In this document: positions 38,765 to 64,000 of the stretch, one piece after another
Layout of the letters: each line of letters starts with the position of its first letter
How positions within the stretch are numbered: the stretch's first letter is position 1
Origin: an uncultured Candidatus Binatia bacterium
GTDB taxonomy: Bacteria; Desulfobacterota; Binatia; Bin18
Length of the DNA stretch: 64,000 nt
Assembly: GCA_965214605.1 (NCBI GenBank)
Contig: OZ243961.1
Span: 553,917-617,916 of the forward strand
Direction: 5' to 3'
Notes under the pieces: generated by a model
The model's input: the letters and a program-made list of their open reading frames with translations, nothing else
Database searches by the model: none
What the model was told of the DNA's origin: nothing
Made by a program: the position numbers and the translations under genes

Positions 38765-39935
38765 AACGGTTTTCGTTTGGCTCGCGGCGGCACGGCAGTT
38801 GCTCTGGTTTACGGAGGGCGGGATTGCGTGCTCCCGGGATGGCGTCACGCGGGGATTGCATCCCCCTCTCATCTCCAGCTAGTATCCGCAACAGGGGGGC
38901 ATCGCCCATGCCCAAGAGGTTTGAGGACACGACGAGATCCATGATCCGCCCCGTGCAGACGTCAAAATCAATGAACCTGAACTTGGTGCGCCGGCCTGTT
39001 CCGGCAACTCAACGCGCAGCAACCGCTCAGCGTTTCGCACGGCAAACAGCGCAGCAACCTGCGCGCTAGGACGGAGAGAACGACCATGAGCGCTACACTG
39101 AGCCCCGCAGAACGCGCCCGCTTTCTCCAGGCGCTGAAGGAGGACTCCGACTTCCGCGAGGCGGTACGCCAGCACCTCCTGAGCGACGCACTGCTGGAAC
39201 TGCCGGAAAAATTCGCCCAGTTCGCCGCCTACGTCAACGAATTTATCGCCAACACCAACGAATTTATCGCCAACACCAACAAATTTATCGCCGACCAAAA
39301 GGCATTCAATACCCGCACCGAAGAACGCCTGGACCGGATTGACGACCGTCTGGACCGTGTTGAAGGCCGTCTGGACCGTGTTGAAGGCCGTCTGGACCGT
39401 GTTGAAGGCCGTCTGGACCGTGTTGAAGGCCGTCTGGACCGGATTGACAACCATCTGGACCGGATTGACAACCGGCTGGACCGGATTGACGACAGCATCG
39501 GCATCCTGAAAGGCAACGCAGCGCGACGTCTGCTCAGAGATCACCTCGAAGGCGTCCTAGAACTCGTAGGCGTAGAGGATTTCGTAAGAATCCTGTCCAG
39601 CAGCGACCTGATTCGCCTGATGCGCACCTCAGGCATGGCTCGCGAGATACCCTACGGAGAACGGCGGAGTTTCTATGCCGCCGATCTGGTCATCGAAGCC
39701 GCCGACGCAACGGGTGCCCCCTGTTATATCACGGCCGAGGGGTCCTTCACCGCGGATAAGCGGGACAGCAGCCGGGCGATTCGGAATGCCGCATTCCTGA
39801 CCCGGCTTACCGGCCACCCGGCCTCCCCTGTCGTTGCCAGCATGAGGAACGACTACGAAGTGCAAGAGCTGGTCAATCAGGAAACCATCCGCTGGTTCCA
39901 GCTGGACGAGCGGGACCTCGAAGCGGATTAGGACG
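38765..39935. repeat. tandem duplication unit 1 (~1.2 kb: 320-bp leader plus repeat-protein gene)
   Basis: near-identical to 39995..41095 apart from internal 21-bp repeat copy number. Confidence 0.8.
39086..39931 (+). CDS. hypothetical protein with variable heptad (21-bp) tandem repeats and conserved C-terminal domain, copy 1
   Basis: 281 aa; (FIANTNE/K)x2 ... (RLDRVEG)x4 (RLDRIDN)x2 coiled-coil repeats; C-terminal ~150 aa identical to copy 2. Confidence 0.6.
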   Translation: MSATLSPAERARFLQALKEDSDFREAVRQHLLSDALLELPEKFAQFAAYVNEFIANTNEFIANTNKFIADQKAFNTRTEERLDRIDDRLDRVEGRLDRVEGRLDRVEGRLDRVEGRLDRIDNHLDRIDNRLDRIDDSIGILKGNAARRLLRDHLEGVLELVGVEDFVRILSSSDLIRLMRTSGMAREIPYGERRSFYAADLVIEAADATGAPCYITAEGSFTADKRDSSRAIRNAAFLTRLTGHPASPVVASMRNDYEVQELVNQETIRWFQLDERDLEAD

Positions 39936-39994
39936 TGATACGATCGCCGTGCCGCGGCCAGCCAAATTCCAGCAAGTGCTTATAGCACCGGTTC

Positions 39995-41095
39995 GCTTTG
40001 GCCAGCGGTTTTCGTTTGGCTCGCGGCGGCACGGCAGTTGCTCTGGTTTACGGAGGGCGGGATTGCGTGCTCCCGGGATGGCGTCACGCGGGGATTGCAT
40101 CCCCCTCTCATCTCCAGCTAGTATCCGCAACAGGGGGGCATCGCCCATGCCCAAGAGGTTTGAGGACACGACGAGATCCATGATCCGCCCCGTGCAGACG
40201 TCAAAATCAATGAACCTGAACTTGGTGCGCCGGCCTGTTCCGGCAACTCAACGCGCAGCAACCGCTCAGCGTTTCGCACGGCAAACAGCGCAGCAACCTG
40301 CGCGCTAGGACGGAGAGAACGACCATGAGCGCTACACTGAGCCCCGCAGAACGCGCCCGCTTTCTCCAGGCGCTGAAGGAGGACTCCGACTTCCGCGAGG
40401 CGGTACGCCAGCACCTCCTGAGCGACGCACTGCTGGAACTGCCGGAAAAATTCGCCCAGTTCGCCGCCTACGTCAACGAATTTATCGCCAACACCAACGA
40501 ATTTATCGCCAACACCAACAAATTTATCGCCAACACCAACAAATTTATCGCCAACACCAACAAATTTATCGCCAACACCAACGAATTTATCGCCGACCAA
40601 AAGGTCTTCAATGCCCGCACCGAAGAACGCCTAGACCGGATTGACGACAACATCGGCATCCTGAAAGGCAACGCAGCGCGACGTCTGCTCAGAGATCACC
40701 TCGAAGGCGTCCTAGAACTCGTAGGCGTAGAGGATTTCGTAAGAATCCTGTCCAGCAGCGACCTGATTCGCCTGATGCGCACCTCAGGCATGGCTCGCGA
40801 GATACCCTACGGAGAACGGCGGAGTTTCTATGCCGCCGATCTGGTCATCGAAGCCGCCGACGCAACGGGTGCCCCCTGTTATATCACGGCCGAGGGGTCC
40901 TTCACCGCGGATAAGCGGGACAGCAGCCGGGCGATTCGGAATGCCGCATTCCTGACCCGGCTTACCGGCCACCCGGCCTCCCCTGTCGTTGCCAGCATGA
41001 GGAACGACTACGAAGTGCAAGAGCTGGTCAATCAGGAAACCATCCGCTGGTTCCAGCTGGACGAGCGGGACCTCGAAGCGGATTAGGACGTGATA
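39995..41095. repeat. tandem duplication unit 2
   Basis: see unit 1. Confidence 0.8.
40325..41086 (+). CDS. hypothetical protein with variable heptad tandem repeats, copy 2
   Basis: 253 aa; (FIANTNE/K)x5 and no RLDRVEG block; otherwise identical to copy 1. Confidence 0.6.
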   Translation: MSATLSPAERARFLQALKEDSDFREAVRQHLLSDALLELPEKFAQFAAYVNEFIANTNEFIANTNKFIANTNKFIANTNKFIANTNEFIADQKVFNARTEERLDRIDDNIGILKGNAARRLLRDHLEGVLELVGVEDFVRILSSSDLIRLMRTSGMAREIPYGERRSFYAADLVIEAADATGAPCYITAEGSFTADKRDSSRAIRNAAFLTRLTGHPASPVVASMRNDYEVQELVNQETIRWFQLDERDLEAD

Positions 41096-49795: not shown

Positions 49796-50013
49796 GCGTC
49801 TTCCTCGCCGTCAAGGACGGAGGAGGCCAGACGCCAGTGACGTGCGCTCACACAGCCAGCAAAAATCACGACCAGGGCGGAGGCAGCCAGACAGACAAGA
49901 AACCACAGGCCCCCCCACCAGCGGTTCGTGCCTCCCGGCAAAGAAATACGGCACCGTGAAAAAGAGCAGAACGCCGGAGATCATCCAGATCTAGGCTTGC
50001 AACGGCTCTCTCA

Positions 50014-50805
50014 TCAATCCAGCCCGGTATAATCAAACTCCATCGGCGTGATATCCCCCGCCGTGATCGCTCGAATCCGCTCAGCCGACAGCGGATAGCT
50101 GAACTGCTCGTTGCGCATATGGAGGCGCTGGAGCAGGATTTTGCCGACCATGTCGACAATCTCTTGCCATTCGGTCGGAGATAGCTGCTGCTGAGCCAGG
50201 CCCACATAGCCGGCCCGCATATGTCCAATCTCGTCGTTGTAGACCTGCTCGCAGGCCCTGGCGATACGGTTATTGAGCTGGCCCGAGCCGGCCAGCCGCA
50301 TACCGGCCGAGTACATACTACAGTAGCCGCCCTCAGTAAAACGCACGGCAAAATAGCCCAAGCGACCCCGCTGCTCGCGATATTCATAGCGCAGACGGGC
50401 CAGTTCGTCGTCAGACTGCCAGCCAACCAACGCGTGCGGGTTCAGCTTCTCCCCACTCAGCCAGTCATAGATATCGGCAAACAGGCAGTAATGGGCAAAC
50501 TCCGTGCGCAGATCGTCAATAACGTCAAGCACGGTGTGGCGATCAACCTGGAGGTCGATTTTATCAAAGACCTCGCTCAGATAGGCAACCGGTCCCTGAA
50601 ACAGCCCTTTTTTCTTATCCCCAACCCCAGAGCCCCAAATCTCCTTAAAACACTGGCGGCGTAGCCACACCAGATCAGTATCGGGCGTCCGCATTGGGCT
50701 CTGAAAATACGTCCACACCACCTCGGCCTCACCCGCCCAGTAGGGCGCGGCGAGATCGACCAAACGTTTGAGCTGAGGATTAATCTGCCGTTTGGCATTC
50801 ATCAT
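50014..50805 (-). CDS. hypothetical ferritin-like/diiron-type protein with two ExxH motifs
   Basis: EFAH...EIGH spacing typical of diiron carboxylate proteins; last gene of the thiolase operon; start uncertain (50805 or 50859). Confidence 0.4.
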   Translation of the reverse strand: MMNAKRQINPQLKRLVDLAAPYWAGEAEVVWTYFQSPMRTPDTDLVWLRRQCFKEIWGSGVGDKKKGLFQGPVAYLSEVFDKIDLQVDRHTVLDVIDDLRTEFAHYCLFADIYDWLSGEKLNPHALVGWQSDDELARLRYEYREQRGRLGYFAVRFTEGGYCSMYSAGMRLAGSGQLNNRIARACEQVYNDEIGHMRAGYVGLAQQQLSPTEWQEIVDMVGKILLQRLHMRNEQFSYPLSAERIRAITAGDITPMEFDYTGLD

Positions 50806-50818
50806 TTTCTTCCGTCGT

Positions 50819-51517
50819 TCATGGCTCGGCATTCCGATCAATCTCATCTCCCAGCTCACAAATCCCCTGATAGAATAGCTTGCAGCCCGTCAGCGCCAGT
50901 TCCATCCCGTCCAGCACTTCCTGACGTTCATGCTCCGTGGCGACATGCCGGGAGATTGGCTCCCAGACCTTCCGTCCGGCGTGATCGTCATCGGCCTTGG
51001 TGTGGTAGGTAAAGAAGAACACCTGCTCATCGTTCAGATCATAGGTCTGCTTCCAGGCCTCGGCCCGAAAATTATGCGCGCCCTGCATAGCGGTGAGGAT
51101 AAACTCATCGACTGAGGTGGCTAACCAGCCAGCCACCCAGTGCCGCGTGCGGGCAAGGTGCTCCCACACACTCAGGGCCACATTGACCAGGGGAACGGGC
51201 CGGGTGGTGTCCATCTGTTCGTTGGTGAGACCGACGTTGCGGCCCATCTCCCACAGCAGTGTGGTGTGGGGCTGGGCAATCTGATCGTCATACACCAGCT
51301 CTTCACGCATCTGACCGATGGTTTTACGGACAACGGCCAGGTCTGGACAGCGACTGATCCAGGCTGGTCGAATGACTGCGCTAAACAGCCGATTGCGCAG
51401 AATATGCTGTAGGATGAAGGCCTGCCCGCGCCCGGGTGTCAAAGGCTCGACCAACCACGGGACTTGGGGAGCGGTTTCAAGGGCACGTTTGCAGATTTCG
51501 TCAACAATAGTGTTCAT
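50819..51517 (-). CDS. heme-oxygenase-like fold protein (TenA/PqqC/CADD family)
   Basis: 232 aa all-helical; conserved YHTKADDDHAG block of the TenA/PqqC-like iron-containing redox enzyme family. Confidence 0.5.
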   Translation of the reverse strand: MNTIVDEICKRALETAPQVPWLVEPLTPGRGQAFILQHILRNRLFSAVIRPAWISRCPDLAVVRKTIGQMREELVYDDQIAQPHTTLLWEMGRNVGLTNEQMDTTRPVPLVNVALSVWEHLARTRHWVAGWLATSVDEFILTAMQGAHNFRAEAWKQTYDLNDEQVFFFTYHTKADDDHAGRKVWEPISRHVATEHERQEVLDGMELALTGCKLFYQGICELGDEIDRNAEP

Positions 51518-51529
51518 ATCTCATCCTCA

Positions 51530-52696
51530 TTACGGCTGCCCCAACACCGCGACACACGACACCGCACCCGGCCCGCCAACGTTGTGGACCAAACCCAGCC
51601 TGGAATTTTGGATCTGACGCGGGCCGGCTTGGCCACGCAGCTGAGTCACAATCTCATACACCATACGGACTCCGCTAGCCCCGATGGGATGCCCAAAAGA
51701 CTTGAGGCCACCGCTTGGATTAACCGGGATATCGCCGTCCAGAGCGGTCCGCCCTTCTTCAATCAGGGTAGCCCCCCGGCCTTTGGGGACAAAACCCAAG
51801 TCTTCATAATTGGTGATTTCGGTCCAGCTAAAACAGTCGTGGACCTCGGCCACGTCGATCTCCATGAGCGGGTCGGTAATGCCGGCCATGGCGTAGGCCT
51901 GGGCCGAGGCGTGCTCAGTAGCCTGAAAGCCGAGGTAGTCATAGCTCGGGTCCATAAAGGGCCGACCGCTGCTCACCGCTAGGCCCACCCCTTTTACCAA
52001 AATATAGTCATCGCGGTATTCTTTGGCCAGATCCGACCGACACACCACAACCGCGGCCGCCCCATCGGTCGTCGGACAGCAGTCATACAGGCCGAACGGA
52101 TAGGCCACGATGGGCGCGGTCAGGACTTCTTCGGCAGAGACGGTCTTTTGCAGATGAGCCTTGGGATTCAACGAGCCGTTGTAGTGATTTTTGACCGACA
52201 CCTTGGCCAGGCTCTCACGGGTCAGTCCATAGGTGTGCATATAGCGGGTAGCAGCCAGGGCAAACAGACCCGGCGCGGTTGACCCGTCATTATAGTAGGG
52301 ATGCACGCCCTCACGCGCCAAGCCACGCCCCGGACGGTCTTTGTACTTCTCCACCCCGAGCACCAAGGCCATATCGTACAGCCCGGCCGCCACGGCTATG
52401 ACCGCGTGACGGAAGGCATCGGTTCCGGTCGCGCAAAAATTCTCGACCCGGGAGATTGGTTTATTGTACAGACGCAGCGCATCGCCCAAGGAGACCGCGG
52501 CCTTACCGTGTCCCTGGGCGGGTGAATAGGTGCCAAGCCAGGCCGCGTCAATCTCGTCAGGGGCAATCTTAGCGTCGTGAAAAGCGGCAAACGCCGCCTC
52601 AACCGCCATTTCTTCGTAACCCTGATCAACATTGTCCCCAAACTTAATGCAGCCTGCCCCAATGACAGCAACCTGATCTTTGATGGAAGCGGACAT
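51530..52696 (-). CDS. thiolase-family protein (SCP-x/archaeal-type acetyl-CoA acetyltransferase-like)
   Basis: VAVIGAGCIKFGDN N-terminal active-site Cys region; C-terminal GHPIGASGVRMVYE block. Confidence 0.75.
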   Translation of the reverse strand: MSASIKDQVAVIGAGCIKFGDNVDQGYEEMAVEAAFAAFHDAKIAPDEIDAAWLGTYSPAQGHGKAAVSLGDALRLYNKPISRVENFCATGTDAFRHAVIAVAAGLYDMALVLGVEKYKDRPGRGLAREGVHPYYNDGSTAPGLFALAATRYMHTYGLTRESLAKVSVKNHYNGSLNPKAHLQKTVSAEEVLTAPIVAYPFGLYDCCPTTDGAAAVVVCRSDLAKEYRDDYILVKGVGLAVSSGRPFMDPSYDYLGFQATEHASAQAYAMAGITDPLMEIDVAEVHDCFSWTEITNYEDLGFVPKGRGATLIEEGRTALDGDIPVNPSGGLKSFGHPIGASGVRMVYEIVTQLRGQAGPRQIQNSRLGLVHNVGGPGAVSCVAVLGQP

Positions 52697-53948
52697 GACT
52701 TCTCCCTTCTGCAACAGCTGTCGTGTTCCCCCCTACTAGCAGCTTGGACAAGAGCCATGACCAACGTCGCAATCCCTGCCCCTTGCAGCCGCAAAGCCCG
52801 CTACCACTGCGCCTTTGTGGCCGGGTGGTCATCGTCTGTCTGAGACGCTTCTCCGATAGCTCTGGCTCTGGCTTCGGCCTGACACTAGTCCATCCCGGTC
52901 TTTTACAACTCTTTGGCTCTAGTCCGTGTGTCAAAAGCCATGACTTGGCTCTCCCCTTTCCTGCCCAATATACCCCCTATTAAGGAAGAAAACAGCGGGG
53001 AAAACTTTGCTATCTCACCTTAAACACCTATAGGGAGGTATTGTCTGATTGCCAGGCATGTCAAGCCGCGGCCTGCTTGCCTCGCCCCCAGCCTCTCCCG
53101 CGCCGGGAGGGGGGAAAGCCTCCGCCTACAGCAGGTGAAATTGGCACAGTACTCTGGCCACCTCCGGATCGCTACGCTGTTCTAACGCCCAGAACACCTC
53201 TCTCAGCTCCTCCAACCGCAGGCGGTTGCCGCTGAGGTCATCTTCCAGGCTCCCCACCTGCCTGCGCAAAGGTCCAACTCATCGTTCGTCGGTTCCGCAG
53301 CACAAAGCCTCTGCTAAGCCGCCACGAGTGTGCTACAGGCACTCTAGTAGCCTCAGGGTCAACTGAAATTGGCGGGCAAACCGTGCGGCCATGTCCTCCC
53401 GCAGTTGGTGAGAACGCCTAGCCGTATCGGTCCAGAGTTGCTCATTCTGTTGGGCCCGCAGCTGGCCCATCTCCGCCGGCAACCGACCGATGTCTCCACG
53501 CAATTGCTGGGACCGCGTCCGCCAACCCCGCTTGTCGGGCTTCGAGTCGTATCAGACGCCTCGGTCAAGGTCGGGGATAGCTCTCCGGGGCGGGCAAGAA
53601 CACTATGACCAAAACCCCCGGGAGGAAGGATTAACTCATGGCGGCATTCAAGGTCGGATGCCGGAAATGTCAAGTCATGTGGAAAAGGGGATCAGCCTGA
53701 CTCGACTGACGGGGCCGTTATGGCATCCACAGCTTCTCCTCAGCAGGGGTAAGCCAAGGCGGCATAATATCGAAAGGGGCGAGCCAGCAACCGCAGCGGC
53801 TCGGTCCCCCCTCCCCTCCTCTCTCCAAGGGGAGGAAAGTGCAGACGGAGACACGACTCGCCAGCGGCTCAATTCCTGGTCTTGCTTGTTTCAAATCCCA
53901 TGTCTAGGCTGTGTTGGGAAAGCTCTTCAGCAGACGAATAGGAGAGAT

Positions 53949-56900
53949 ATGAGACGACAACATCACAGTGGTCAGAACGCTCGTGACTGGCGGCGCCAAA
54001 TAGCAGCCTCTGCGGAGAAACAACAAGAAAGCGTCTTCACATATAAGTTTGGACTGAGCATACAAGAGGGAGATTTAGACTTTGCCGCGGCCACTCGAAC
54101 CTACGACATCACCGAAGGGATTTTATGCGGGAGCTTAATCGGCTTGATATGCGCTGTGCATCTGTCCGGGTTTCGCCTATTTTCCAAGAGCGGGGAGACA
54201 CGCCAGTTCCGAAATCGAAGTCGATATCCCGAAGACGCATTCACCAAGGCGTTCCGCGCTCATACGGAAATCATAAACCCTGACATTACGATTCAGTCAA
54301 TTGAGGCTGTCTTCGCCGCACCTCCGCGAAAGAAAATAGCCTGGTCAGCGGACACCCTTGGGAAGCGGCTGTTTCAAACCTGGAACAATCGCTCCCCAAA
54401 AGACGCAGAGAGAGAGCACCCAGAATTTTTACTGGCCCAGGGAATCGCTTGCGAAGTCGCCAAACAGTTCTCCGGATGGAAGGAACTCGCCGACAATGTA
54501 AGCGGTGCACTGGCCTGCGCTGACAGATATCTGGCGACCCTGGGAGACTCCTTTCCAAAACTCAGTAACCTGCCACCCGGAACCACGATCAATCCAGACT
54601 CTTGTACGCTTGCCTACGATCCCGAATCGCCCTTCGTTGAGATGGTTGGTAACGAAGAAAACTGGCTCCATCAGGTAGTGGCGGTTTGTGCTGGCAGGCT
54701 GAAACGAGACATGCCCGATCGTGACCTATCCTCGTCTGATTTTGCAAAGCGTCTGAACGACGCTGTTGTTACTAGTCAGCACAATGGACTGTCTTGGTTA
54801 TTCGGCAACGGCCTACGCTACCTTCGGAAATCAAGCATTGAGCGGATTACCGAAAACCTTGATGTTCCACACGGGAAGCGCCAACGAGTTGAACAACTCA
54901 AAGCCTTTGCCGACGCGCTTCCTGACAATCCATTTTTCGACACCAATGGCTATGCCGAGTTTCGTACCTCCGTCGGTGGCAAGATCGCCTCATGGGTCTC
55001 GAACTACTGGAAGCGCATTTGCGAACTTGCGACGTTGCATTCTCAGCCGCCGGATATCGCTATTCCCGAAACGCTGCAAGATCCCGATAACGCCTTTCTG
55101 TTTTCTGGTCAGCACACCAACGCTGCCGGCCTCATAGACCTCTCTAATCGCATCCCTGAGCGGGTCAAAAAAGCCGGCAATGCGCTTGTTGTTCTGCGTG
55201 GAAGTTGTATTCCTGGACCGGAAGATATCGCCGTCGTTGAATCCGTTGCCGATGAGATGACCGAACTCACTGGGCAACTCTCCATGCTCGACAACCGCAT
55301 TCGGCAGGAAACCGAACGCGCCAAAGACGCCGAAAACGAAAAACGTGCCAAGGTCCTAGAATCCCTCAGGCCAAACATTCCCAAAGGTCTCAAGGATCTG
55401 CCCAAACTAAACAGCATATCAGGCGGCACCGTGGACGCTACCGGTGAGATCAAACGGCTGGAAGCCGACCTGAACTCCGTCATACGAGCACGCCGTGAGC
55501 ACTTCCGGCAACTCTCTGAATGGGCGGACAGTAACGCAGGCGGCCTTGATCCCCTGCCCATCCTTAAAGAACGCGAACAAGAGGCGCTTTCCGACCGAAA
55601 CATGGACCTCGATTGTGCAGCTGAATACGCTATCCGGCGTCTGCTTGATCGCATCGGCGTCATGTCGCATCGACTGTCGCCAAGTGTAGCCGAGCAAATC
55701 CGGACCGCCATGACGCCGCTTTTTCGCAGGAAAAAAGAGGCAAACCGCTACTTCTACAATCGCAACGGCAGGATCTATCGGCATCCCTTCAGCACCTCAC
55801 GTCACCAGGCTTATGCCATAGACGTAGAGCGTGCCCACGCAACCGATTGGCTCTTGTGGTTGGAGGAGCGGACGACAGAAATCCGTAACGCTCTGCGCGC
55901 GGATCAGACACGCCTACGCGATCTTCTGTTGATGGAAGCTTTTGTCCTGACGACACGGCTCGGCGGTCTCTCTGATCGTGTACCGGGGGATCTGGCGAAA
56001 CCGGAAAACGACTGTCTCAACATTCCTCCCCTGCTCAAAGCGCAGCTCGAGGCTAGGGAGGTTTCGCGCGATGTGGCCGTGCGCGCCTTCAATCTGTTCA
56101 ATAGTGCTATCAATGGTCTGTCGTTTCGCGCCTTCCGTGATAGTTTCATTGTTCGCGTTAAGTTTCAGCGCCAAGATCGCGAAGAAGTATTTTATGTCCC
56201 GAAGGAACGCCCCTGGCAGGCACCAGCTGACTATGATTCAGCCAAGGGTGAGATATCTAAGGGCTTGAAGCTCTCCGCAGTCGTGCGTGACCAAACCGGG
56301 GCTGTTCTGCCGCGTGAGACAGCCAAGGGCTTGAGTAAGGCGAAGTTTCCCGAGCCGGGTACGCGTGCCCTGCTGCGTCAATCGCCTCATGACTGGTTCG
56401 TCGAACTCGATGTCCGCTCTACCCAGGCTTCGGAGTTGGCAGGGCTGCCCGTCAAGAAGAACAAAGACGGACTCAAGCGCTGGAAAGTCCTGAAAAAGCC
56501 GGCCTTTCGACTAGTCGGGCCGCCCTCGTTCAAGACGCAGCTCGACCGCGCTCTGACAAGCGGAGAGGTGAAGCTCGGCGACTACACGCTCATCATTGAC
56601 CAGCTCTTCAAACAGTCCTTGTACGTCGAAGGTGAGGAGATACACCTTTTGGCTGAACCGGTAAAGATTCGGGCAGAACTGGCGGTTCCAGTAATAGACA
56701 ACCGGCCGTATCCCAAGTCTGAAACCGACTTGATATTTAACAAGATCGTTGCCATAGACCTTGGCGAGCGACGGGTCGGCTACGCGGTCTTCTCGCTCAT
56801 AGACTTCGTGGAAAACGGTTGCCAAAATCCGATCAAGGTGGGGAGCGTCGCCATTCCCGCTTTCAGGAAACTGATGGCCGCGGTCCGCCGCCACCGCGGG

Positions 56901-57734
56901 TCGCGGCAGCCCAACCAGAAGGTCGACCAAACCTACTCGAGAGCGCTGATGCAGTTCCGAGAAAACGTGGTGGGAGACGTCTGCTCTCGCATTGAGACCT
57001 TGTGCGAATACTTCGGCGGATTTCCCGTACTCGAAAGTTCGGTGGGAAATTTCGAGACAGGGGGCCGCCAGCTGGAGATGATCTATGGTTCAGTCCTGCG
57101 CCGCTACACTTTCTCCGAAGTGAAAGCCCATAAAGCCACCCGTAGCCATCATTGGTTCACAGCGGACACCTGGAAGCATCCCTACGTCTACACCTACACC
57201 TACACCTGGAATAAGAGAGAAAAGCAATATTCCGGCCCATCCAAGCCGCTGAAGATATTCCCCGGCGTCACGATCAACCCGGCCGGCACCAGCCAGACTT
57301 GCCAGCATTGTAAGCGGAATGCCCTTCAGGCGCTGCGTAACATGACGGACAAGGTCGAAGTGGGAGAAGACGGCCGCGTAGTCCTCGGAAACGGGACGAT
57401 ACGGCTTCTCGAACGAGCCGATTATCTTCCTTCCGAACGAAGAAAATTTCGTCACAACAAAGCAAGGCCGCCGCTAAACGTGCCTGCCCAGAAAGGATCC
57501 CGGCTAAGCCGCGACATCACGCGTATCGCCAGACGAAACATGCGGCAACCCCCATCTTCCACAATGTCACCCGATACCACACAGTCTCGCTTCAAATGCG
57601 TGTACGTTGACTGCGGCTATGAGGGGCATGCCGACGAAAATGCCGCAATTAACATCGGCCGGCGTTTTTTGGAACGGATCGATATGGAAACGTCGAGAGG
57701 GACGTGCCGGGACTTGACCGGGCAGCGAGAATGA
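53949..57734 (+). CDS. cas12: Cas12-family (type V) CRISPR effector, ~1261 aa
   Basis: C-terminal TnpB-like core: RuvC-I IVAIDLGERRVGYAV, RuvC-II VLESSVGNFE, Zn-finger CQHCKRN...CVYVDCGY, RuvC-III GHADENAAINIGRRF; large N-terminal REC-like region; SD GGAGAG before the ATG at 53949; upstream part of the 53490 ORF looks non-coding. Confidence 0.75.
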   Translation: MRRQHHSGQNARDWRRQIAASAEKQQESVFTYKFGLSIQEGDLDFAAATRTYDITEGILCGSLIGLICAVHLSGFRLFSKSGETRQFRNRSRYPEDAFTKAFRAHTEIINPDITIQSIEAVFAAPPRKKIAWSADTLGKRLFQTWNNRSPKDAEREHPEFLLAQGIACEVAKQFSGWKELADNVSGALACADRYLATLGDSFPKLSNLPPGTTINPDSCTLAYDPESPFVEMVGNEENWLHQVVAVCAGRLKRDMPDRDLSSSDFAKRLNDAVVTSQHNGLSWLFGNGLRYLRKSSIERITENLDVPHGKRQRVEQLKAFADALPDNPFFDTNGYAEFRTSVGGKIASWVSNYWKRICELATLHSQPPDIAIPETLQDPDNAFLFSGQHTNAAGLIDLSNRIPERVKKAGNALVVLRGSCIPGPEDIAVVESVADEMTELTGQLSMLDNRIRQETERAKDAENEKRAKVLESLRPNIPKGLKDLPKLNSISGGTVDATGEIKRLEADLNSVIRARREHFRQLSEWADSNAGGLDPLPILKEREQEALSDRNMDLDCAAEYAIRRLLDRIGVMSHRLSPSVAEQIRTAMTPLFRRKKEANRYFYNRNGRIYRHPFSTSRHQAYAIDVERAHATDWLLWLEERTTEIRNALRADQTRLRDLLLMEAFVLTTRLGGLSDRVPGDLAKPENDCLNIPPLLKAQLEAREVSRDVAVRAFNLFNSAINGLSFRAFRDSFIVRVKFQRQDREEVFYVPKERPWQAPADYDSAKGEISKGLKLSAVVRDQTGAVLPRETAKGLSKAKFPEPGTRALLRQSPHDWFVELDVRSTQASELAGLPVKKNKDGLKRWKVLKKPAFRLVGPPSFKTQLDRALTSGEVKLGDYTLIIDQLFKQSLYVEGEEIHLLAEPVKIRAELAVPVIDNRPYPKSETDLIFNKIVAIDLGERRVGYAVFSLIDFVENGCQNPIKVGSVAIPAFRKLMAAVRRHRGSRQPNQKVDQTYSRALMQFRENVVGDVCSRIETLCEYFGGFPVLESSVGNFETGGRQLEMIYGSVLRRYTFSEVKAHKATRSHHWFTADTWKHPYVYTYTYTWNKREKQYSGPSKPLKIFPGVTINPAGTSQTCQHCKRNALQALRNMTDKVEVGEDGRVVLGNGTIRLLERADYLPSERRKFRHNKARPPLNVPAQKGSRLSRDITRIARRNMRQPPSSTMSPDTTQSRFKCVYVDCGYEGHADENAAINIGRRFLERIDMETSRGTCRDLTGQRE

Positions 57735-57841
57735 GCCACCATCGTTCCTATTCTCTTCCAGGCCCAAGGACTTATCATCCATACCTCAACCTGGAAGACG
57801 TCCCCGCCTCCCCGGACGCCCTTCAAAGAGGGGAGGCATCA

Positions 57842-58897
57842 TCACCTTACCAGCTTTGAAGAGGAATGGGAGGTAAGGGGAATATCGCCTGGCAGCCGAT
57901 AGGAGACCTTTGGCGGACGCCCGCCTTTACGTTCACCCGCGGCGGGAACGATAAACCGGCGCATGTCGCCGGCCAGGTAAGCCCGCAGCGCCAACACGCT
58001 TCCATGCAACAGATTTTTACGGCGCACAAACTGGTGGGTAGCGGGAACGTAGACAACCTTCTCCATATCGTTCTTCAGCCCGGACAAAGTGGCTTTGGTC
58101 AGCGAGTCAGAGGCATTGTCCGGGGGATGGGTCCGGCAGGCCCCGGCAACGGCCTCTTCAATCATGTACCGGGCTGGCTCCATGAGATCGTAGACAAGTC
58201 CCATGTAGTCGGTCCCTTCATGCAGGAATCCGTGACTGGGCGAAAGCCGGTGGATTAACAACCAGCGCAAGAGTACCCCAGACAGGAACATGGACCCTGC
58301 ATCAAGGGCGGCTGGTAAAGGCCCCTCCCCTCTGCGAGTGATATCAGGGTATCCCATCCGAGTGAAATATCTCCGCCAATATCTGCGTGATTGCTCGGCT
58401 TCCCAGGCCCGTATCTGTCCAAGATTCCGTGTACGCGCCAGCCGTTTGTAGACAGCGCTTGGCATGGGCAGTGTGTTCTCTACCGCCCGAAAACGTTCAC
58501 GTACTAGAGTCCGCGCAATATAGGCACGTTTAGATTTATTTGTCCGGGTAACGATCTGTCTGGTCAAAATATCGTCGGCATCGACTCTGGGAGCTGGCAA
58601 GAAAATCGCTGGGCGGCTGATGTTGCGGCGGTGAACAAGGAGGGGCACTCGGCGAAAGGCAAGTTCGTCAATGAGAGCGACCGGAATCTGGCCAGTCGCG
58701 CCGTAGAACATGATGCAATCAAGCTGCGACAGCTCAGTATCGACCTCGCCTCCGTTATATGTGAACCGCCATAAGTTCTTTTTGAGCCTTGCTACCTGAG
58801 AGACGTATGGTAGCCACAAGGTCGTCTTGCTTCTCCGCTTGGTTGATTTCCATGTCCAAAGAGAATTTGGATGTTGAAATTGATCAATTTTAACCAT
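57842..58897 (-). CDS. cas1: CRISPR-associated endonuclease Cas1
   Basis: Cas1 blocks LDCIMFYGATGQIPVALIDELAFRRVPLLV and HGFLHEGTDYMGLVYDLMEPARYMIEEAV; no cas2 or cas4 adjacent. Confidence 0.85.
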   Translation of the reverse strand: MVKIDQFQHPNSLWTWKSTKRRSKTTLWLPYVSQVARLKKNLWRFTYNGGEVDTELSQLDCIMFYGATGQIPVALIDELAFRRVPLLVHRRNISRPAIFLPAPRVDADDILTRQIVTRTNKSKRAYIARTLVRERFRAVENTLPMPSAVYKRLARTRNLGQIRAWEAEQSRRYWRRYFTRMGYPDITRRGEGPLPAALDAGSMFLSGVLLRWLLIHRLSPSHGFLHEGTDYMGLVYDLMEPARYMIEEAVAGACRTHPPDNASDSLTKATLSGLKNDMEKVVYVPATHQFVRRKNLLHGSVLALRAYLAGDMRRFIVPAAGERKGGRPPKVSYRLPGDIPLTSHSSSKLVR

Positions 58898-58958
58898 ATA
58901 TGTCCTCAGTAAGAAAATCGAAAAATCATTGTAATATAAATATTTATCTGGTATACCT

Positions 58959-59623
58959 CCAGTTCTGAAGGGGAATTAGAGGCCGAAAAATATGAGTTCT
59001 GAAGGGGAATTAGAGGGTGTGGAGCATGACGCAATCCAGTTCTGAAGGGGAATTAGAGGCTGAAATACGGGCGTTCCTCCAGTTCTGAAGGGGAATTAGA
59101 GGTTCTCAACAGCATGAGGAGTCCAGTTCTGAAGGGGAATTAGAGGTTCTCAACAGCATGAGGAGTCCAGTTCTGAAGGGGAATTAGAGGTTCTCAACAG
59201 CATGAGGAGTCCAGTTCTGAAGGGGAATTAGAGGTTCTCAACAGCATGAGGAGTCCAGTTCTGAAGGGGAATTAGAGGTTCTCAACAGCATGAGGAGTCC
59301 AGTTCTGAAGGGGAATTAGAGGTTCTCAACAGCATGAGGAGTCCAGTTCTGAAGGGGAATTAGAGGTTCTCAACAGCATGAGGAGTCCAGTTCTGAAGGG
59401 GAATTAGAGGTTCTCAACAGCATGAGGAGTCCAGTTCTGAAGGGGAATTAGAGGTTCTCAACAGCATGAGGAGTCCAGCAGGGGAATTAGAGGTTCTCAA
59501 CAGCATGAGGAGTCCAGTTCTGAAGGGGAATTAGAGGCACGCGCATGACGCACCCCCCAGTTCTGAAGGGGAATTAGAGGATGGAAGGCTTCGGGCTGCC
59601 CAGTTCTGAAGGGGAATTAGAGG
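58959..59623 (+). CRISPR. CRISPR array, 16 repeats of 24 nt (CCAGTTCTGAAGGGGAATTAGAGG) with 18-20 nt spacers; AT-rich leader at 58898..58958
   Basis: period 43-44 bp; 6 distinct spacers, one present in 10 tandem copies; second repeat lacks 5' CCA; one repeat is truncated (59475..59493). Confidence 0.85.
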
Positions 59624-59644
59624 CAGGGAGGGAGGGCTGGAATC

Positions 59645-60370
59645 TCATCGCTGTCCAAGTCGAATCGCCTCGGCCAGGTCTACCGCGCCGGTGTAGAGGG
59701 CGCGGCCGATAATCAGGCCGTGTATACCGTCCGCTTTACATGGCCGCAGCCGCTCAATGTCTTCAAGACTGGCCACGCCACCAGAGGCAATAACAGGAAT
59801 CTGAATTGCCCGAGCCAAGAGCCGGGTGGCTTCGATATTCACCCCTAGGGATGTACCGTCACGGATAATATCGGTGTAGACAATCTCACCAACGCCCATA
59901 TCTTGGCACTGTTCGGCAAGTTGCGTCGCCTCAAGCTCAGTCGCTTCAGTCCAGCCTTGGACAGCGACTTTCCCGTCCCGGGCATCAATGCCAACCGTAA
60001 TCCGGCCCAAAAAGCGTCTACATGCCTCAGCTACAATCTGAGGCTGCCGATAGGCTACTGTGCCCAGAATTGCACGCTGTACCCCGAGTGAGAACATCTG
60101 CTCAATCGCCGCTAGGCTGCGCAGTCCACCGCCGAGCTGAACCGGAATATGTAAGGATTGGCAGATTTTTTCTATAGCGTCAGTGTTCACGCCTGCGCCT
60201 GACATGGCGCCGTCAAGATCAACTAGGTGGAGCCGAGCGGCTCCGGCGTCTTGCCAGCGCTGTGCCACGGCGACCGGATCGTCGGAGTAGATGGTCGCCT
60301 GAGCCATATCACCTTGGTAGAGACGCACACACTGACCGGCCTTGAGGTCGATGGCGGGGATAATCTCCAT
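59645..60370 (-). CDS. hisA: 1-(5-phosphoribosyl)-5-[(5-phosphoribosylamino)methylideneamino]imidazole-4-carboxamide isomerase
   Basis: MEIIPAIDLKAGQCVRLYQGDM...; TIM-barrel HisA blocks; start set at MEIIPAID. Confidence 0.85.
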   Translation of the reverse strand: MEIIPAIDLKAGQCVRLYQGDMAQATIYSDDPVAVAQRWQDAGAARLHLVDLDGAMSGAGVNTDAIEKICQSLHIPVQLGGGLRSLAAIEQMFSLGVQRAILGTVAYRQPQIVAEACRRFLGRITVGIDARDGKVAVQGWTEATELEATQLAEQCQDMGVGEIVYTDIIRDGTSLGVNIEATRLLARAIQIPVIASGGVASLEDIERLRPCKADGIHGLIIGRALYTGAVDLAEAIRLGQR

Positions 60371-60375
60371 AGGAA

Positions 60376-61038
60376 TCACAGAGGAGGGTGGTGGTCGGTC
60401 ACAAATTTGCCGAAGTTGGCCAAGATTTGTAGGCCGACGGCCTGGCTTTTTTCTGGGTGAAATTGGGTAGCGAAGATATTGCCTGACCAAACACTCGACG
60501 CAAAATGGATGCCGTACTCGGTGGTGGTGGCCACGATGGCCGGGTCTGTTGGGATCGGATAATAGGAGTGAACAAAATACACCGCCGCGCCCTCGGGTAT
60601 CTTGGCCAAATGGGGGGCTGGTCGCTCAATGTGGAGCTGGTTCCAGCCCATATGGGGGATTTTTTGTGGACCGTTGTCGGTTGTCAGCAGAGCAGGATCA
60701 AAGCGCTCGACCGTGCCTTTAAGGATGTCCAAACCTTGCTCCCGGCCAAACTCGTAACTTTCTGAAAACAGGATCTGCATACCGACACAAATCCCAAGCA
60801 GCGGCGTGCCGCTGTTGGCCACCCGATGGACGGTTTCGATAAGCCTACATTTAGCCAGCCCGTCCATACACGCGCTAAACGCGCCCACGCCCGGCAGTAC
60901 TACTCCCGCGGCAGCCTCAATGCGGGCAGCGTCCCTGGTGATTTCAGCCGGGTAGCCCATCTTCTCGCAGGCTTTTTGGACACTCCGCAGATTGCCCATA
61001 CCATAGTCAATAATCGCAATTGTGCCGAGAGGCATTCT
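60376..61038 (-). CDS. hisH: imidazole glycerol phosphate synthase, glutamine amidotransferase subunit
   Basis: MPLGTIAIIDYGMGNLRSV...GICVGMQ; start set at MPLGTIAI. Confidence 0.85.
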   Translation of the reverse strand, partial: RMPLGTIAIIDYGMGNLRSVQKACEKMGYPAEITRDAARIEAAAGVVLPGVGAFSACMDGLAKCRLIETVHRVANSGTPLLGICVGMQILFSESYEFGREQGLDILKGTVERFDPALLTTDNGPQKIPHMGWNQLHIERPAPHLAKIPEGAAVYFVHSYYPIPTDPAIVATTTEYGIHFASSVWSGNIFATQFHPEKSQAVGLQILANFGKFVTDHHPPL

Positions 61039-61051
61039 CTCTCCTCCGCTC

Positions 61052-61135
61052 CCTCCCTCTCCCTCTAATTCCCCTTCGGAGCTGGCCAGAGATATAGGTA
61101 TAGGGCATAGGACATCGGCTATTTCACAATCACAC
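61052..61135 (+). ncRNA. candidate tracrRNA-like element: 24-nt anti-repeat followed by an 8-bp hairpin
   Basis: CCTCTAATTCCCCTTCGGAGCTGG is the reverse complement of the CRISPR repeat except two A-to-G changes that give G-U pairs with a plus-strand crRNA; followed by GGCTATTT-N15-AAATAGCC. Confidence 0.35.
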
Positions 61136-61169
61136 TGCAAAATAGCCGTGTATTAAAGTGGCGTGTTGT

Positions 61170-61892
61170 CTATTCCGGAACCGGCCGCGCCCGCTGGTTG
61201 TAGAGCATCTTGCGCAGGCGGTCTTTCTCTTCCTGCGACAGCTTGGAGAAGTCCATGGACAGCTCGCTGCCAACGGCCATGCCTTTTTTCACCCCGTCCC
61301 GTTCCGAGAGTTCCTCAAACCAGCGTTTGAAATATTTAAACTCGTTGATGTCCTGTCCCTGGGCCTCCCAGCTGACCGTCCAGGGATAACAAATCATATC
61401 GGCGATCGTATACTCATCACCGGCCAGATAAGGCTGCCGATAGAGCTGATTATTTAAGACGCCAAACAGACGGTTGACCTCATCTGTGAAACGCCGCACT
61501 GCATATGTCTGATCACCCTGTTCATCGCCCAAGCGCCGAAAATGACCACACTCTCCGCTTTTGGGGCCTTGGTTGGCCATCTGCCACATGACCCACTGGT
61601 TGACGACGTAACGCCCCCGCACGTCTTGGGGATAGAACTTGCCGGCCTTCTCGGCAATATACATCATCATTGCTCCAGATTCAAAAATACTGATCGGCTC
61701 GCCCCCGCCCAAGGGATCGTGGTCGACCATGGCGGGCATCCGGTTGTTAGGACAGATCTGTAGAAATTCGTCCGTGAACTGATCTCCACGGCCAATGTTG
61801 CAGGGGATCATATTGTAGGCTATGTCACACTCTTCGAGCAGAATAGTCACCTTTTTGCCGTTTGGCGTGGGCCAATAGTGTAAGTCAATCAT
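61170..61892 (-). CDS. glutathione S-transferase family protein (Nu-class/YghU-like)
   Basis: 240 aa; GST N- and C-domains (MIDLHYWPTPNGKK...). Confidence 0.75.
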   Translation of the reverse strand: MIDLHYWPTPNGKKVTILLEECDIAYNMIPCNIGRGDQFTDEFLQICPNNRMPAMVDHDPLGGGEPISIFESGAMMMYIAEKAGKFYPQDVRGRYVVNQWVMWQMANQGPKSGECGHFRRLGDEQGDQTYAVRRFTDEVNRLFGVLNNQLYRQPYLAGDEYTIADMICYPWTVSWEAQGQDINEFKYFKRWFEELSERDGVKKGMAVGSELSMDFSKLSQEEKDRLRKMLYNQRARPVPE

Positions 61893-62021
61893 GCTGCGTA
61901 CCTCCTTTTTTCCGATATCGACCGACCGGACGTTATGCCACCCTACACCGATTCGACTGACTGGAACAAGCAGGTCTGGATGCGCAAGCGCCGGGATCTT
62001 GCCTGTCGCCGAGCGAACGGC

Positions 62022-62624
62022 TTACGCATCTGTCCACTCGGTATTCCAGCGTGGAAAAAAACGCGGCACCCGCCGGCAGTATGCAGCATAGGCCTGGCCA
62101 AAACGCTGGTGTAATTCCCGCTCTTCAAACACGACAATCACATACAACAGGGGCAGACTCAGTGCCGCCCATACGTATAAGATCAGATAATTGGCCACAA
62201 AGGCGAAGCCTAGCACTGATAGAAACACTTCTAGATAGCGCGGGTGTCGTATCCGGGCATAAATCCCCTCCTGTAACAAGCTGGACGGTTGGCTCTGAGA
62301 GCGCAGTTCGGGGAGACCGATCATGATACGCAGGGTCAAATATTTGCGGTGCTGGAGTGCAAGCGCGCCTGCTCCGCTCAGACACACTACGGCCAGTCCC
62401 AGACAGACGGCGTTTGTCTCGTACTTGGTGGCCAACAGCGCACCGCGAACTACAAACAGGCCTCCGCCAAGCATGCTCAGCTCGGCTCCCACCAGACCAT
62501 ACGTCCAGCCCACCCCCCGTTTACGCCAAAATTCGGCAAAAGGGTGGATGCACAGCCAGAACAACAGCCCCGGCGGGAGGCCGATCAGAAACGCGAACGC
62601 AATCCCGTAGCGCAACTCATCCAT
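62022..62624 (-). CDS. isoprenylcysteine carboxyl methyltransferase (ICMT/phospholipid methyltransferase) family membrane protein
   Basis: multi-TM; C-terminal RHPRY...VFEERELHQRFG motif; start set at MDELRYG. Confidence 0.6.
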   Translation of the reverse strand: MDELRYGIAFAFLIGLPPGLLFWLCIHPFAEFWRKRGVGWTYGLVGAELSMLGGGLFVVRGALLATKYETNAVCLGLAVVCLSGAGALALQHRKYLTLRIMIGLPELRSQSQPSSLLQEGIYARIRHPRYLEVFLSVLGFAFVANYLILYVWAALSLPLLYVIVVFEERELHQRFGQAYAAYCRRVPRFFPRWNTEWTDA

Positions 62625-62822
62625 TAGGTGCACGCCGACCCTCCGCTCCCAACCGACCGCAAGGTCCCCAACTCCATAACAGCCGATATCACCATTCCTA
62701 GGTATGAAGCACCCCCCAATCAGCCCGAGACACCAGGCGGCCTGCCTCCCTCCCCTTGTCTCTTCCCAGATCAGAATAGTACAACCGCTTAGAAGACAAC
62801 ATCTTGTTGCGGACATCCGAGA

Positions 62823-63887
62823 TTGGAGGATATGATGCTGAGGGCACTTGCAGTGTGTAGCGGAAAAGGTGGTGTAGGCAAAACGCTGTTATCGGCCAGT
62901 CTGGCCCGGATTATTCAGCAAGCAGAAAACTGCAACGTCTTGGCAGTCGATTTAGACCTAACAGTCAGTGGGCTAACCCTCTTGTCGTTTCACAATAAAC
63001 TTGAGCTTGATCAAGTCCCAATCTCACTCTTTGACTACCTGACCGGTGATGACAATGCCCAAAGTGCGCTGTTCGGAGCCTTACAGGCCGCCGTCACATC
63101 AAGGGGCGAATATCCTTCGGCCGTGCTCTACCAGCGTCTAGATCACGTTTTTGTCCTGCCCGCCTCCACAGAAAGTGAGCGTCCGGACTGGAGCCGGTCT
63201 GCCCAGATTGAACTCGACCTGGCGATTGAAAAAATTGCCCAGCTGCGACATTTTGCCGCTGAGTCGCTGGACATCGACTATCTGATTTTTGATACTCAAG
63301 CTGGCTTGGGCAGCCTCAGTCTGGCCGCGGCAACGCTCAGCGATATGACCCTTATCGTGATGGAAGAAGACGATATCAGCTGGTTCACCGCGCTGCGCAT
63401 GTTCACCGAAATTACCGAGTTGAACAGACGCCTCAAAAACCGCTCGCGCAGCTACTTCCTGGCCAACAAAGTCCAAGCTGGGCTGATGGATATGGCCAGC
63501 AAACTGAAAGCCTTTTCCTTTCTGCCACCGATCCCGTTCGATAGCTGGATGCAGCGTCTGGTGTCGAACTCGACCGCCGTTGTCCTTGAAAAAGAGTTTG
63601 AAGACAGCGACTTCTTTCGTCGTTTACAAACCCGGGTGTGGCGAGAAATGGCCAGCCTTTTTGGACTCAGCCAGAGTCCCCAAAAAAATGCCTCGTTTAG
63701 CTGGTGGCGGCAGCTCAAGGGACCGGTCGAGCCAATGCCGAAAGCCAAGCCCACAGCGTCGTCCCCCCCTCCCCGCCTCAGCCCGAATTTCCAGAACAGT
63801 CAGCCAGAAAAAACCACGCCCTCCGCCGCCAAAGCCCAGCCTGCTGACCAACCTCACCGGTTAGACGTCAAAAGTGAAGTCCGTTGA
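62823..63887 (+). CDS. ParA/MinD-family P-loop ATPase with Pro/Ser-rich C-terminal tail
   Basis: deviant Walker A AVCSGKGGVGKT; 354 aa. Confidence 0.6.
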   Translation: MEDMMLRALAVCSGKGGVGKTLLSASLARIIQQAENCNVLAVDLDLTVSGLTLLSFHNKLELDQVPISLFDYLTGDDNAQSALFGALQAAVTSRGEYPSAVLYQRLDHVFVLPASTESERPDWSRSAQIELDLAIEKIAQLRHFAAESLDIDYLIFDTQAGLGSLSLAAATLSDMTLIVMEEDDISWFTALRMFTEITELNRRLKNRSRSYFLANKVQAGLMDMASKLKAFSFLPPIPFDSWMQRLVSNSTAVVLEKEFEDSDFFRRLQTRVWREMASLFGLSQSPQKNASFSWWRQLKGPVEPMPKAKPTASSPPPRLSPNFQNSQPEKTTPSAAKAQPADQPHRLDVKSEVR

Positions 63888-63897
63888 TCTAATGTGA

Positions 63898-64000
63898 CGG
63901 AATCAGGACGACTTTCCCCGTCGTACGTCGGGCGGCCAGATAGCGATGGGCATCGGCCGCGTGGGCAAGGGGAAACGTCCGGTCCATAACAGGCCGCAGG
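63898..64000 (-). CDS. C-terminal fragment of a zinc-type alcohol dehydrogenase/quinone oxidoreductase (MDR family); gene continues beyond the window
   Basis: minus-strand frame reads ...[25 protein letters not shown]. Confidence 0.4.

Follow-up and report, generated by a model that had tools for sequence, protein, structure and literature searches.

A solitary copy of the CRISPR repeat, found in reverse complement 1438 nt beyond the last repeat of a type V-C array and separated from it by the hisA and hisH genes, is very probably the former last repeat of that array: a slightly degenerate unit from its trailer end that was flipped along with hisH and hisA. The element lies in a 64 kb stretch of DNA, the whole of which was analysed and is referred to below as the window. 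A first-pass annotation had taken it for an anti-repeat of the tracrRNA type, equipped with a hairpin of its own, and had offered, as the fallback, a repeat left over from an array that was inverted or had decayed. It is the fallback that has held up: synteny with sister genomes shows that hisH–hisA and the terminal repeat have been inverted. The anti-repeat reading has fared badly, as a canonical Cas12c tracrRNA is predicted elsewhere in the locus, ten related loci are without the element and the hairpin is an older host element.

We infer the order of events, and the exact breakpoints of the inversion, as follows. A cas12c–cas1–array module would have inserted between hisH and the thiolase gene, ~20 nt upstream of the former, giving an ancestor in which the last repeat stood directly before hisH, with hisH–hisA running in the same direction as the array, an arrangement that persists in the sister lineage. 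In the window's lineage only, a chromosomal inversion of ~1.45–1.5 kb would then have turned around a segment comprising the terminal repeat, hisH with its leader, hisA and a few bases of 3′ flank, with the outcome that the old terminal repeat came to lie, reverse-complemented, between hisH and GST. Most likely, the orphan repeat would play no part in crRNA maturation or in CRISPR function more generally.

The type V-C locus and its orphan repeat

The product of the large effector gene matches the NCBIfam Cas12c family at 1074 bits and, among proteins of known structure, Cas12c2 (PDB 7v93, E = 1e-150) and Cas12c1 (PDB 7vyx, E = 2e-122). The effector is Cas12c and the locus answers to the description of type V-C. 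Apart from cas12c, the stretch from the thiolase gene to the array holds a single cas gene, cas1; cas2 and cas4 are absent, as is usual for type V-C, whose systems lack cas2 (PMC6977970). An exact look-up of the Cas1 sequence returned no record. The current last repeat of the array (59600–59623) is a perfect match to the consensus, and the array-distal flank, considered as a possible part of the CRISPR module, is not conserved among relatives. Array and hisA are now convergent, 21 nt apart with no terminator predicted between them, an arrangement that may cause antisense transcription in both directions. When the five distinct array spacers were compared with IMG/VR, four had no match and the fifth gave a single 19-nt match (L018), flanked by GA and not extending further, that is probably due to chance. 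The coordinates of all features are collected in Table 1.

Table 1 Features of the type V-C locus and its surroundings (window coordinates)
Feature	Coordinates	Strand	Details
cas12c	53979–57734	+	ORF as listed from 53490; homology begins near 53979; 1414-aa ORF
tracrRNA promoter-like element	57714–57742		TTGACC-N17-CACCAT; overlaps cas12c stop
Canonical Cas12c tracrRNA (predicted)	57746–57848	+	Between cas12c and cas1; conservation, covariation, covariance model
tracrRNA AR1	57750–57754		AUUCU
tracrRNA stem 1	57755–57762 with 57790–57797		CUUCCAGG/CCUGGAAG; encloses small stem and dock
tracrRNA dock	57784–57787		CCUC
tracrRNA terminator-like stem	57806–57813 with 57830–57837		
tracrRNA AR3	57819–57825		CCCUUCA; within terminator-like stem
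cas1	57842–58897	−	
AT-rich leader	58898–58958		cas1 side of array
CRISPR array	58959–59623	+	24-nt repeat CCAGTTCTGAAGGGGAATTAGAGG; spacers 19–20 nt
Left arm of 42-nt inverted repeat	59596–59637	+	Last array repeat plus CAGGGAGGGAGGGC
Inverted segment (approximate)	59624–61105		hisA 3′ flank, hisA, hisH, leader, orphan and adjacent 20 nt; breakpoints uncertain by ~20–40 nt
hisA	59645–60370	−	Intact; inverted relative to neighbours
hisH	60376–61035	−	Intact; inverted relative to neighbours
hisH leader	61036–61061	−	GAGAGGGAGGGAGCGGAGGAGAGAGA
Right arm of 42-nt inverted repeat	61048–61089		Arms 79% complementary
Orphan repeat	61062–61085	− (repeat sense)	Unique minus-strand copy; 2 mismatches
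20 nt at repeat-5′ side of orphan	61086–61105	−	CCCTATACCTATATCTCTGG; possible old last spacer or mobile-element scar
Hairpin	61117–61147	−	GGCTATTT/AAATAGCC; hisA/GST intergenic, GST 3′ end

On the plus strand the orphan repeat reads CCTCTAATTCCCCTTCGGAGCTGG, the reverse complement of the 24-nt repeat with two A-to-G changes; in repeat sense, on the minus strand, it is CCAGCTCCGAAGGGGAATTAGAGG. A search of the 64 kb window for minus-strand copies of the repeat with up to three mismatches returned this one copy (61062–61085), where shuffled sequences gave an expectation of zero. Read along the hisH coding strand, the orphan precedes the hisH start codon by 26 nt. The arrangement is not an assembly artefact, because an independent short-read contig (L007; ENA ERZ21849000) is identical through the last three repeats, hisA, hisH, the orphan and GST, confirming both junctions.

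Much of what the first-pass annotation said of the sequence itself stands. There are indeed two departures from the exact complement of the repeat, both A to G, at the position given above; the distance past the array and beyond hisA–hisH, put at 1.4 kb, agrees with the measured value; and a hairpin with an 8 bp stem does follow the orphan. Co-folding bears out the proposal that a plus-strand RNA would pair with the repeat at 24/24 positions, including two G–U pairs, with an energy of −44.2 kcal/mol (a perfect complement gives −44.9), and that the opposite strand combination is the poorer, having two internal mismatches and −35.9 kcal/mol. That the changes are G–U-compatible is likewise true of both but carries little weight: the chance of two random substitutions both being wobble-compatible in the orphan's orientation is 0.04–0.21, depending on transition bias, and one of the two is inherited. 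This is the C at position 5 of the orphan in repeat sense, which is also present in the terminal repeat of the sister array, in the repeat of a further Cas12c relative (L006) and in a pseudo-repeat at 57850. The sister terminal repeat cannot be an anti-repeat, since it is in direct orientation, and the C that it has in common with the orphan is thus an old array-end variant rather than a wobble adaptation.

Several further searches of the region gave no match: Rfam families against 50000–64000 (E ≤ 1), GenBank phages against the orphan region (blastn), and the 20 nt beside the orphan (its ‘spacer’), for which there is no second site in the window at up to three mismatches and no partial match near the cas promoters. 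The plus-strand fold of the orphan region is no better than that of shuffled sequences (z = −0.8). The idea that the orphan represents an inverted leader and first repeat was also considered and rejected, as the minus-strand sequence upstream of it has no significant similarity to seven leaders.

Inversion of hisH–hisA in the window's lineage

Relatives of the host were reached by searching with HisH rather than by CRISPR similarity. In three relatives that have no CRISPR (L008, L009 and L010; HisH 82–85% identical), a minus-strand thiolase gene is followed by hisH and hisA on the plus strand, and L008 and L010 continue with GST (−), a PEMT-like gene (−) and a CbiA/ParA-like gene (+). Four sister loci (L013–L016; HisH 88% identical), reached through cluster member P0121, have the Cas12c module at the same site as the window and an array repeat identical to that of the window. 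Here the order is thiolase (−), cas12c (+), cas1 (−), array (+), a degenerate terminal repeat, hisH (+), hisA (+) and GST (−). In blastn comparison with one of these sisters, L014, window positions 59637–61026 align with L014 11385–9998 in inverted orientation at 82.5% identity, whilst 50016–52707, 53861–59629 and 61170–61972 are collinear; the hisH–hisA segment is likewise inverted, between collinear flanks, against the CRISPR-less L008, L009 and L010. These alignments show that hisH–hisA was inverted in the window's lineage and that both flanks stayed collinear. As regards the history of the module, the essential hisH–hisA genes that stand directly behind the array in the sister lineage have been flipped, in that of the window, to behind GST.

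The degenerate terminal repeat of the sister array, CCAGCTTTGAAGGGGATGGGGC (beginning CCAGCTTTGAAGGGGA, with C at position 5), is directly adjacent to the hisH ATG; mutated terminal repeats occur in L003, L004 and L005 as well. The orphan resembles degenerate terminal repeats of this kind in being a member of the repeat family with few substitutions and in having, on the proposed history, formerly adjoined the first downstream gene; it differs from them in being severed from the array and inverted together with two housekeeping genes. A trailer-end repeat is contiguous with its array and in the same orientation, whereas the orphan is now 1438 nt away and inverted, a discrepancy for which the inversion accounts: the orphan is a former, not a current, terminal repeat. 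The hisH leader is itself composite, its 3′ half resembling the ancestral hisH ribosome-binding region (GCCGAGGAAATA in L008 and L010) and its 5′ half carrying the trailer motif AGGGAGGGAG. In L014, the ancestral upstream motif GGCTTGATTC is now found in front of cas12c.

On the anti-repeat reading the element was expected in orthologous loci, and its absence from them had been named beforehand as evidence against that reading. A reverse-complement repeat, allowing up to six mismatches, was found in none of the ten related loci, that is, neither in L001–L006 (10 kb flanks, each searched with its own repeat) nor in L013–L016. A possible decayed anti-repeat between hisA and GST in the sister lineage, noticed by eye, was rejected when its alignment was compared with shuffled sequences (p ~0.3). 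Among closer Cas12c relatives sought as intermediates, the best was 72% identical and none was closer than the sister lineage; a metagenome scan for more Cas12c loci added one, L006.

The hairpin beside the orphan has a separate history. L008 and L010, which have no CRISPR, possess the same hairpin between convergent hisA and GST (GGCTATTTTGCAGCGTGCGTGCAAAATAGCC in L008), with GACAGC (in the window, GACATC) before it and the conserved 3′ end of GST after it. The hairpin is thereby shown to be an ancestral host element, older than the CRISPR insertion and no part of an anti-repeat RNA. A minus-strand RNA of this region forms a ~15 bp stem that makes use of G–U pairs, the corresponding positions being A–C mismatches on the plus strand; by the first-pass annotation's own logic, the hairpin therefore belongs to the minus strand, at the 3′ end of GST.

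A predicted tracrRNA between cas12c and cas1

Cas12c tracrRNAs, also named scoutRNAs (PMC9723637, PMC9522604; Harrington et al. 2020 as cited there), pair with the repeat via three short anti-repeats set in a stem scaffold, for example 8 + 4 + 4 bp in Cas12c1, so that the anti-repeat is discontinuous, in stretches of 4–8 nt inside the scaffold (PMC9723637, PMC9522604). The first-pass annotation had called a full-length anti-repeat unexpected if the effector were Cas12c or Cas12d; the effector is Cas12c, and the known tracrRNAs use short, discontinuous anti-repeats. In the window, a predicted tracrRNA of this type occupies the gap between cas12c and cas1. This 108-nt gap is conserved at the DNA level in 6/6 Cas12c relatives (L001–L006; 62–74% protein identity), and its sequence is kept even in L002, where cas1 is mostly deleted. 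As in the tracrRNAs of Cas12c1 and Cas12c2, a short 5′ anti-repeat is followed by a stem 1 around stem 2 and a CCUC dock, then by a stem 3/terminator with a 7-nt 3′ anti-repeat.

Across the loci compared, neither the dock nor GAGG varies, and stem 1 shows compensatory changes. The anti-repeats, for their part, change with the repeats: where the repeat has G for A at position 16 (L003, L004), AR1 has C for U, and where it has T for A at position 10 (L002, L005), AR3 has A for T. A covariance model trained on seven tracrRNA sequences, with the four sister loci left out of training, scored 117.7 bits at window 57746–57848 and 83.4 bits (E = 1e-25) at the equivalent site in each of the four untrained sister loci; in the orphan region (61000–61200) it found no match at E ≤ 10. 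The predicted tracrRNA has the published layout, the conservation and the covariation with the repeat; it is conserved in ten related loci, with a three-part anti-repeat that covaries with their repeats. Because this RNA is conserved, covarying and matched by the model, the system already has a trans-acting RNA in the usual form. The tracrRNA of this clade of Cas12c effectors is thus located, with covariation in its support, which should be useful for reconstituting them.

The orphan shares with Cas12c tracrRNAs its complementarity to the crRNA repeat. It differs from them in being a continuous 24-nt complement with no scaffold, situated outside the cas module, absent from orthologous loci and unmatched by the model of the clade. 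Scaffold, conservation and covariation, the marks of a Cas12c tracrRNA, are all absent from it, and by definition it is no short-complementarity scoutRNA.

The breakpoints and other readings of the orphan

Inversions with inverted duplications at their breakpoints, as envisaged by the staggered-break model, are known from the Drosophila inversion literature. The inverted block in the window is similarly bounded by a 42-nt imperfect inverted repeat made up of repeat and trailer motif, but its arms are only 79% alike and the left arm holds a perfect consensus repeat. The motif AGGGAGGGAG occurs in both arms, 2–4 nt past the end of the repeat (p = 0.013 unanchored, 0.0006 anchored). This sharing is a local matter rather than a genome-wide one, since GGGAGGGAG is not enriched across the window (20 matches at up to one mismatch against 24 expected). 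The shared motif suggests either an inverted duplication of repeat and trailer, of the staggered-break type, or recombination between pre-existing inverted copies. The shared AGGGAGGGAG together with a perfect last repeat is not what a clean two-break inversion would give, and this argues against the simple form of the explanation that we prefer.

A different observation concerns the outer edge of the orphan. Window positions 61081–61105 show an exact 25-nt identity to the viral sequence IMGVR_UViG_3300042294_001443 (about 279–303 of the 1879-nt stretch analysed, out of a 31.6 kb contig), which extends 5 nt (CCAGC) into the orphan and ends exactly one spacer length from the repeat. A 10-mer adjacent to the identity, ATGTCCTATG, recurs 72 nt upstream in the same viral contig. 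The junction at the orphan's edge has the palindrome CTGGCCAG; at the opposite junction, CCAGC is present again in the hisA 3′ flank. A PHROGs search with the ORFs of the 1.9 kb (1879-nt) viral stretch returned no match. The 25-nt identity may represent either the former last spacer, with 5 further nt matching by coincidence, or a scar of att type left by a mobile element. The trailer motif and the viral identity point to different forms of the event; the main conclusion is independent of both.

Three other readings of the orphan have to be set against this conclusion. The least credible is that it is a functional plus-strand anti-repeat RNA, either full-length and tracrRNA-like or an anti-crRNA, which would pair with every pre-crRNA repeat and drive or modulate its processing; we regard this as highly improbable. 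The pairing at 24/24 positions with two G–U pairs (−44.2 kcal/mol) fits such a role, but one of the wobble changes was inherited from a terminal repeat in direct orientation and two compatible changes would arise by chance with p ~0.04–0.2. A weak promoter-like site on the plus strand (60977–61004, 9/12) does lie ~55 nt upstream of the orphan, although its hexamers sit antisense to hisH codons that are conserved, and sites of this kind show no enrichment (5, where shuffled sequences give 2.4 ± 1.3); read-through from the array, with no terminator predicted before hisA, could also reach the orphan. A hairpin does follow downstream, but it is an older host element that folds better on the minus strand. 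To this must be added that the orphan region is without a scaffold, where the known Cas12c tracrRNAs are discontinuous (PMC9723637, PMC9522604), that the element is missing from ten related loci, and that a canonical, covarying Cas12c tracrRNA is present. The case calls for caution: a perfect-looking anti-repeat with wobble-only changes and a hairpin nearby can be the scar of a rearrangement, and it is comparison of orthologous loci that settles the matter.

The two remaining readings concern how the orphan arose and what it might do. The outer edge of the orphan would be an attR-like scar if an element related to IMGVR_UViG_3300042294_001443 had recombined at (G)CCAGC within CTGGCCAG; the inversion would then be owed to site-specific recombination instead of random breakage, a history that is compatible with the flipped terminal repeat and would, if true, give a mobile element a way to break an array. 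We consider this unlikely. The identity corresponds to an element arm plus CCAGC, after which the sequences diverge, and a chance 25-mer match is put at ~1e-4 (a rough figure, from the estimated size of the collection), but its end, at precisely one spacer length from the repeat, is what an ordinary spacer would give, the 5 nt within the orphan then being a coincidence. The recurring 10-mer and the second CCAGC, in the hisA 3′ flank, also speak for such an element; against this, there is a single matching contig, there is no integrase or att evidence within its 1.9 kb (PHROGs found nothing there) and no prophage remnant is seen beyond ~35 nt. It is improbable, too, that the orphan serves as the handle of a pseudo-crRNA in minus-strand transcripts of the hisH leader, where binding by Cas12c–tracrRNA would couple the level of the effector to hisH–hisA and a RuvC ‘ruler’ cut ~17–19 nt downstream would fall in the hisH ribosome-binding region. 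The orphan in repeat sense does keep every tracrRNA contact save one base pair at the AR3 end, it stands, on the coding strand, 26 nt ahead of the hisH ATG, and regulatory standalone repeat-like elements have been described for other CRISPR types (10.1101/2023.03.03.530964). History alone, however, explains the orphan; every array has a terminal repeat and then a trailer. Moreover, it is not conserved in relatives as a separate element, and its ‘spacer’ has no other target in the window at up to three mismatches. It would surprise us if the relic were not inert, whether through a pseudo-crRNA tie to histidine biosynthesis or through a repeat-integrating mobile element at (G)CCAGC that caused the inversion.

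The preferred reading, that of a former terminal repeat carried off by an inversion, has parallels. Standalone repeat units and repeat-like cr-like RNAs have been reported in CRISPR–cas loci, among them remnants of lost arrays in Francisella V-A loci (Shmakov et al., bioRxiv 10.1101/2023.03.03.530964). Like these, the orphan is solitary, repeat-like and near a CRISPR–cas locus, and some such units are read as array remnants; unlike the regulatory elements of this class (cr-like RNA/SRU), in which a conserved solitary repeat adjoins a guide-like segment with a partial match to a regulatory target, it is not conserved, has no partial target near the cas promoters and is in the opposite orientation. 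Solitary repeats from rearranged or lost arrays have thus already been described (10.1101/2023.03.03.530964), and the orphan is a real feature with an ordinary explanation. If it is transcribed at all, its position suggests that the RNA would likeliest be a minus-strand one in which the orphan, in repeat sense, forms part of the hisH–hisA leader, made by read-through from GST or from another promoter.

Insertion upstream of hisH and the edge of the orphan repeat

The CRISPR module has been inserted approximately 20 nt 5′ of the hisH start codon, the insertion point being located in the window itself and in the sister locus L014, and the equivalent site in the CRISPR-less relative L008 (see table). 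The ancestral hisH upstream motif GGCTTGATTC is now found before cas12c. In the sister lineage, the array is followed directly by hisH-hisA and a truncated terminal repeat provides the sequence immediately 5′ of the ATG. The intergenic gap between the thiolase gene and hisH differs between relatives, its contents in two CRISPR-less relatives (L009 and L010) and in the window's lineage being listed in the table, and it looks like a recurrent site of insertion.

The window also carries approximately 1.15 kb of DNA (52708-53860) between the thiolase gene and cas12c; the sister loci lack this segment and have only approximately 130 nt between the two genes. No homologue of this segment was found in any of the loci compared, and it is without a convincing ORF. 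A long ORF at 53490-57734 was rejected as an artefactual N-terminal extension of cas12c.

On the far side of the array, the motif AGGGAGGGAG occurs 3′ of the array's final repeat and again 3′ of the orphan repeat (the solitary reverse-complement copy beyond hisA and hisH), the two copies being mutually inverted. This suggests that a repeat and its trailer were duplicated in the course of the inversion. The palindrome CTGGCCAG is located at the orphan-edge junction, and the orphan edge is crossed by an exact 25-nt identity between the 61081-61115 region and the viral contig IMGVR_UViG_3300042294_001443 (198-303 of the stretch L017), in which a collinear 10-mer sits 72 nt off. The 25-nt identity marks a former spacer or else an att-like scar.

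Coordinates of features (in the window unless another locus is named)
Feature	Locus	Coordinates	Strand	Remark
Canonical Cas12c tracrRNA	window	57746-57848	+	between cas12c and cas1
30-nt insertion	window	57845-57874	+	overlaps cas1 3′ end; this genome only
Motif AGGGAGGGAG, array copy	window	59625-59634	+	
Motif AGGGAGGGAG, orphan copy	window	61049-61058	-	
Insertion point of module	window	~53845-53870		
Insertion point of module	L014	~4020-4045		
Insertion point of module	L008	9960-10000 (equivalent site, no CRISPR)		
Thiolase-hisH gap	L010	1679-2014		HicB-like antitoxin gene
Thiolase-hisH gap	L009	9746-10000		255-nt spacer
Thiolase-hisH gap	window's lineage			CRISPR module

The tracrRNA and a second solitary repeat

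A promoter-like element of the tracrRNA (TTGACC-N17-GAYCAT) is conserved and overlaps the cas12c stop codon, and comparison of seven loci shows covariation between the anti-repeat segments of the tracrRNA and the repeats. The 30-nt insertion, which lengthens Cas1 by approximately 10 residues, holds a second solitary repeat-like sequence, CCAGCTTTGAAGAGGAATGGGAGG, that is identical to the repeat at 19 of 24 positions, retains all tracrRNA contacts except one and lies directly 3′ of the tracrRNA in the same orientation as the array. Transcription running past the tracrRNA into CCAGCTTTGAAGAGGAATGGGAGG would generate a tracrRNA-repeat fusion.

Array irregularities and a viral match

The array is irregular at its leader-proximal end (58983-59016): the first spacer measures only approximately 10-12 nt, and the 5′ end of the second repeat (TGAGTT...) carries two mismatches. 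Further along, the spacer TTCTCAACAGCATGAGGAGT is present ten times consecutively (59103-59513), with one repeat within the run (CCAGCAGGGGAATTAGAGG, ~59475-59493) being 5 nt short. A repeat-spacer unit may have been duplicated in tandem here, or the run may be an effect of long-read assembly; the independent short-read contig L007 (ENA ERZ21849000) terminates within the run. Spacer 3 (CTGAAATACGGGCGTTCCT, 59060-59078) matches IMGVR_UViG_3300033121_000912 exactly at a single 19-nt site (2261-2279 of the stretch L018), where the 5′ flank is GA, not TN, and there is no extension beyond 19 nt. The match is probably due to chance.

Apparent decay in relatives, and tandem repeats elsewhere

In one sister genome (L013 4560-9358, on a 3.6 Mb contig), cas12c is called in two pieces of 817 and 365 amino acids and cas1 as short fragments, with 13 repeats still present, and the system appears to be decaying. 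In the Cas12c relative L002, cas1 is also largely deleted and the tracrRNA region retained.

Elsewhere in the window, several 21-nt tandem-repeat arrays (39235-40594; units CAACGAATTTATCGCCAACAC and GAAGACCGTCTGGACCGGATT, 2.8-8.3 copies) probably encode heptad-like protein repeats.
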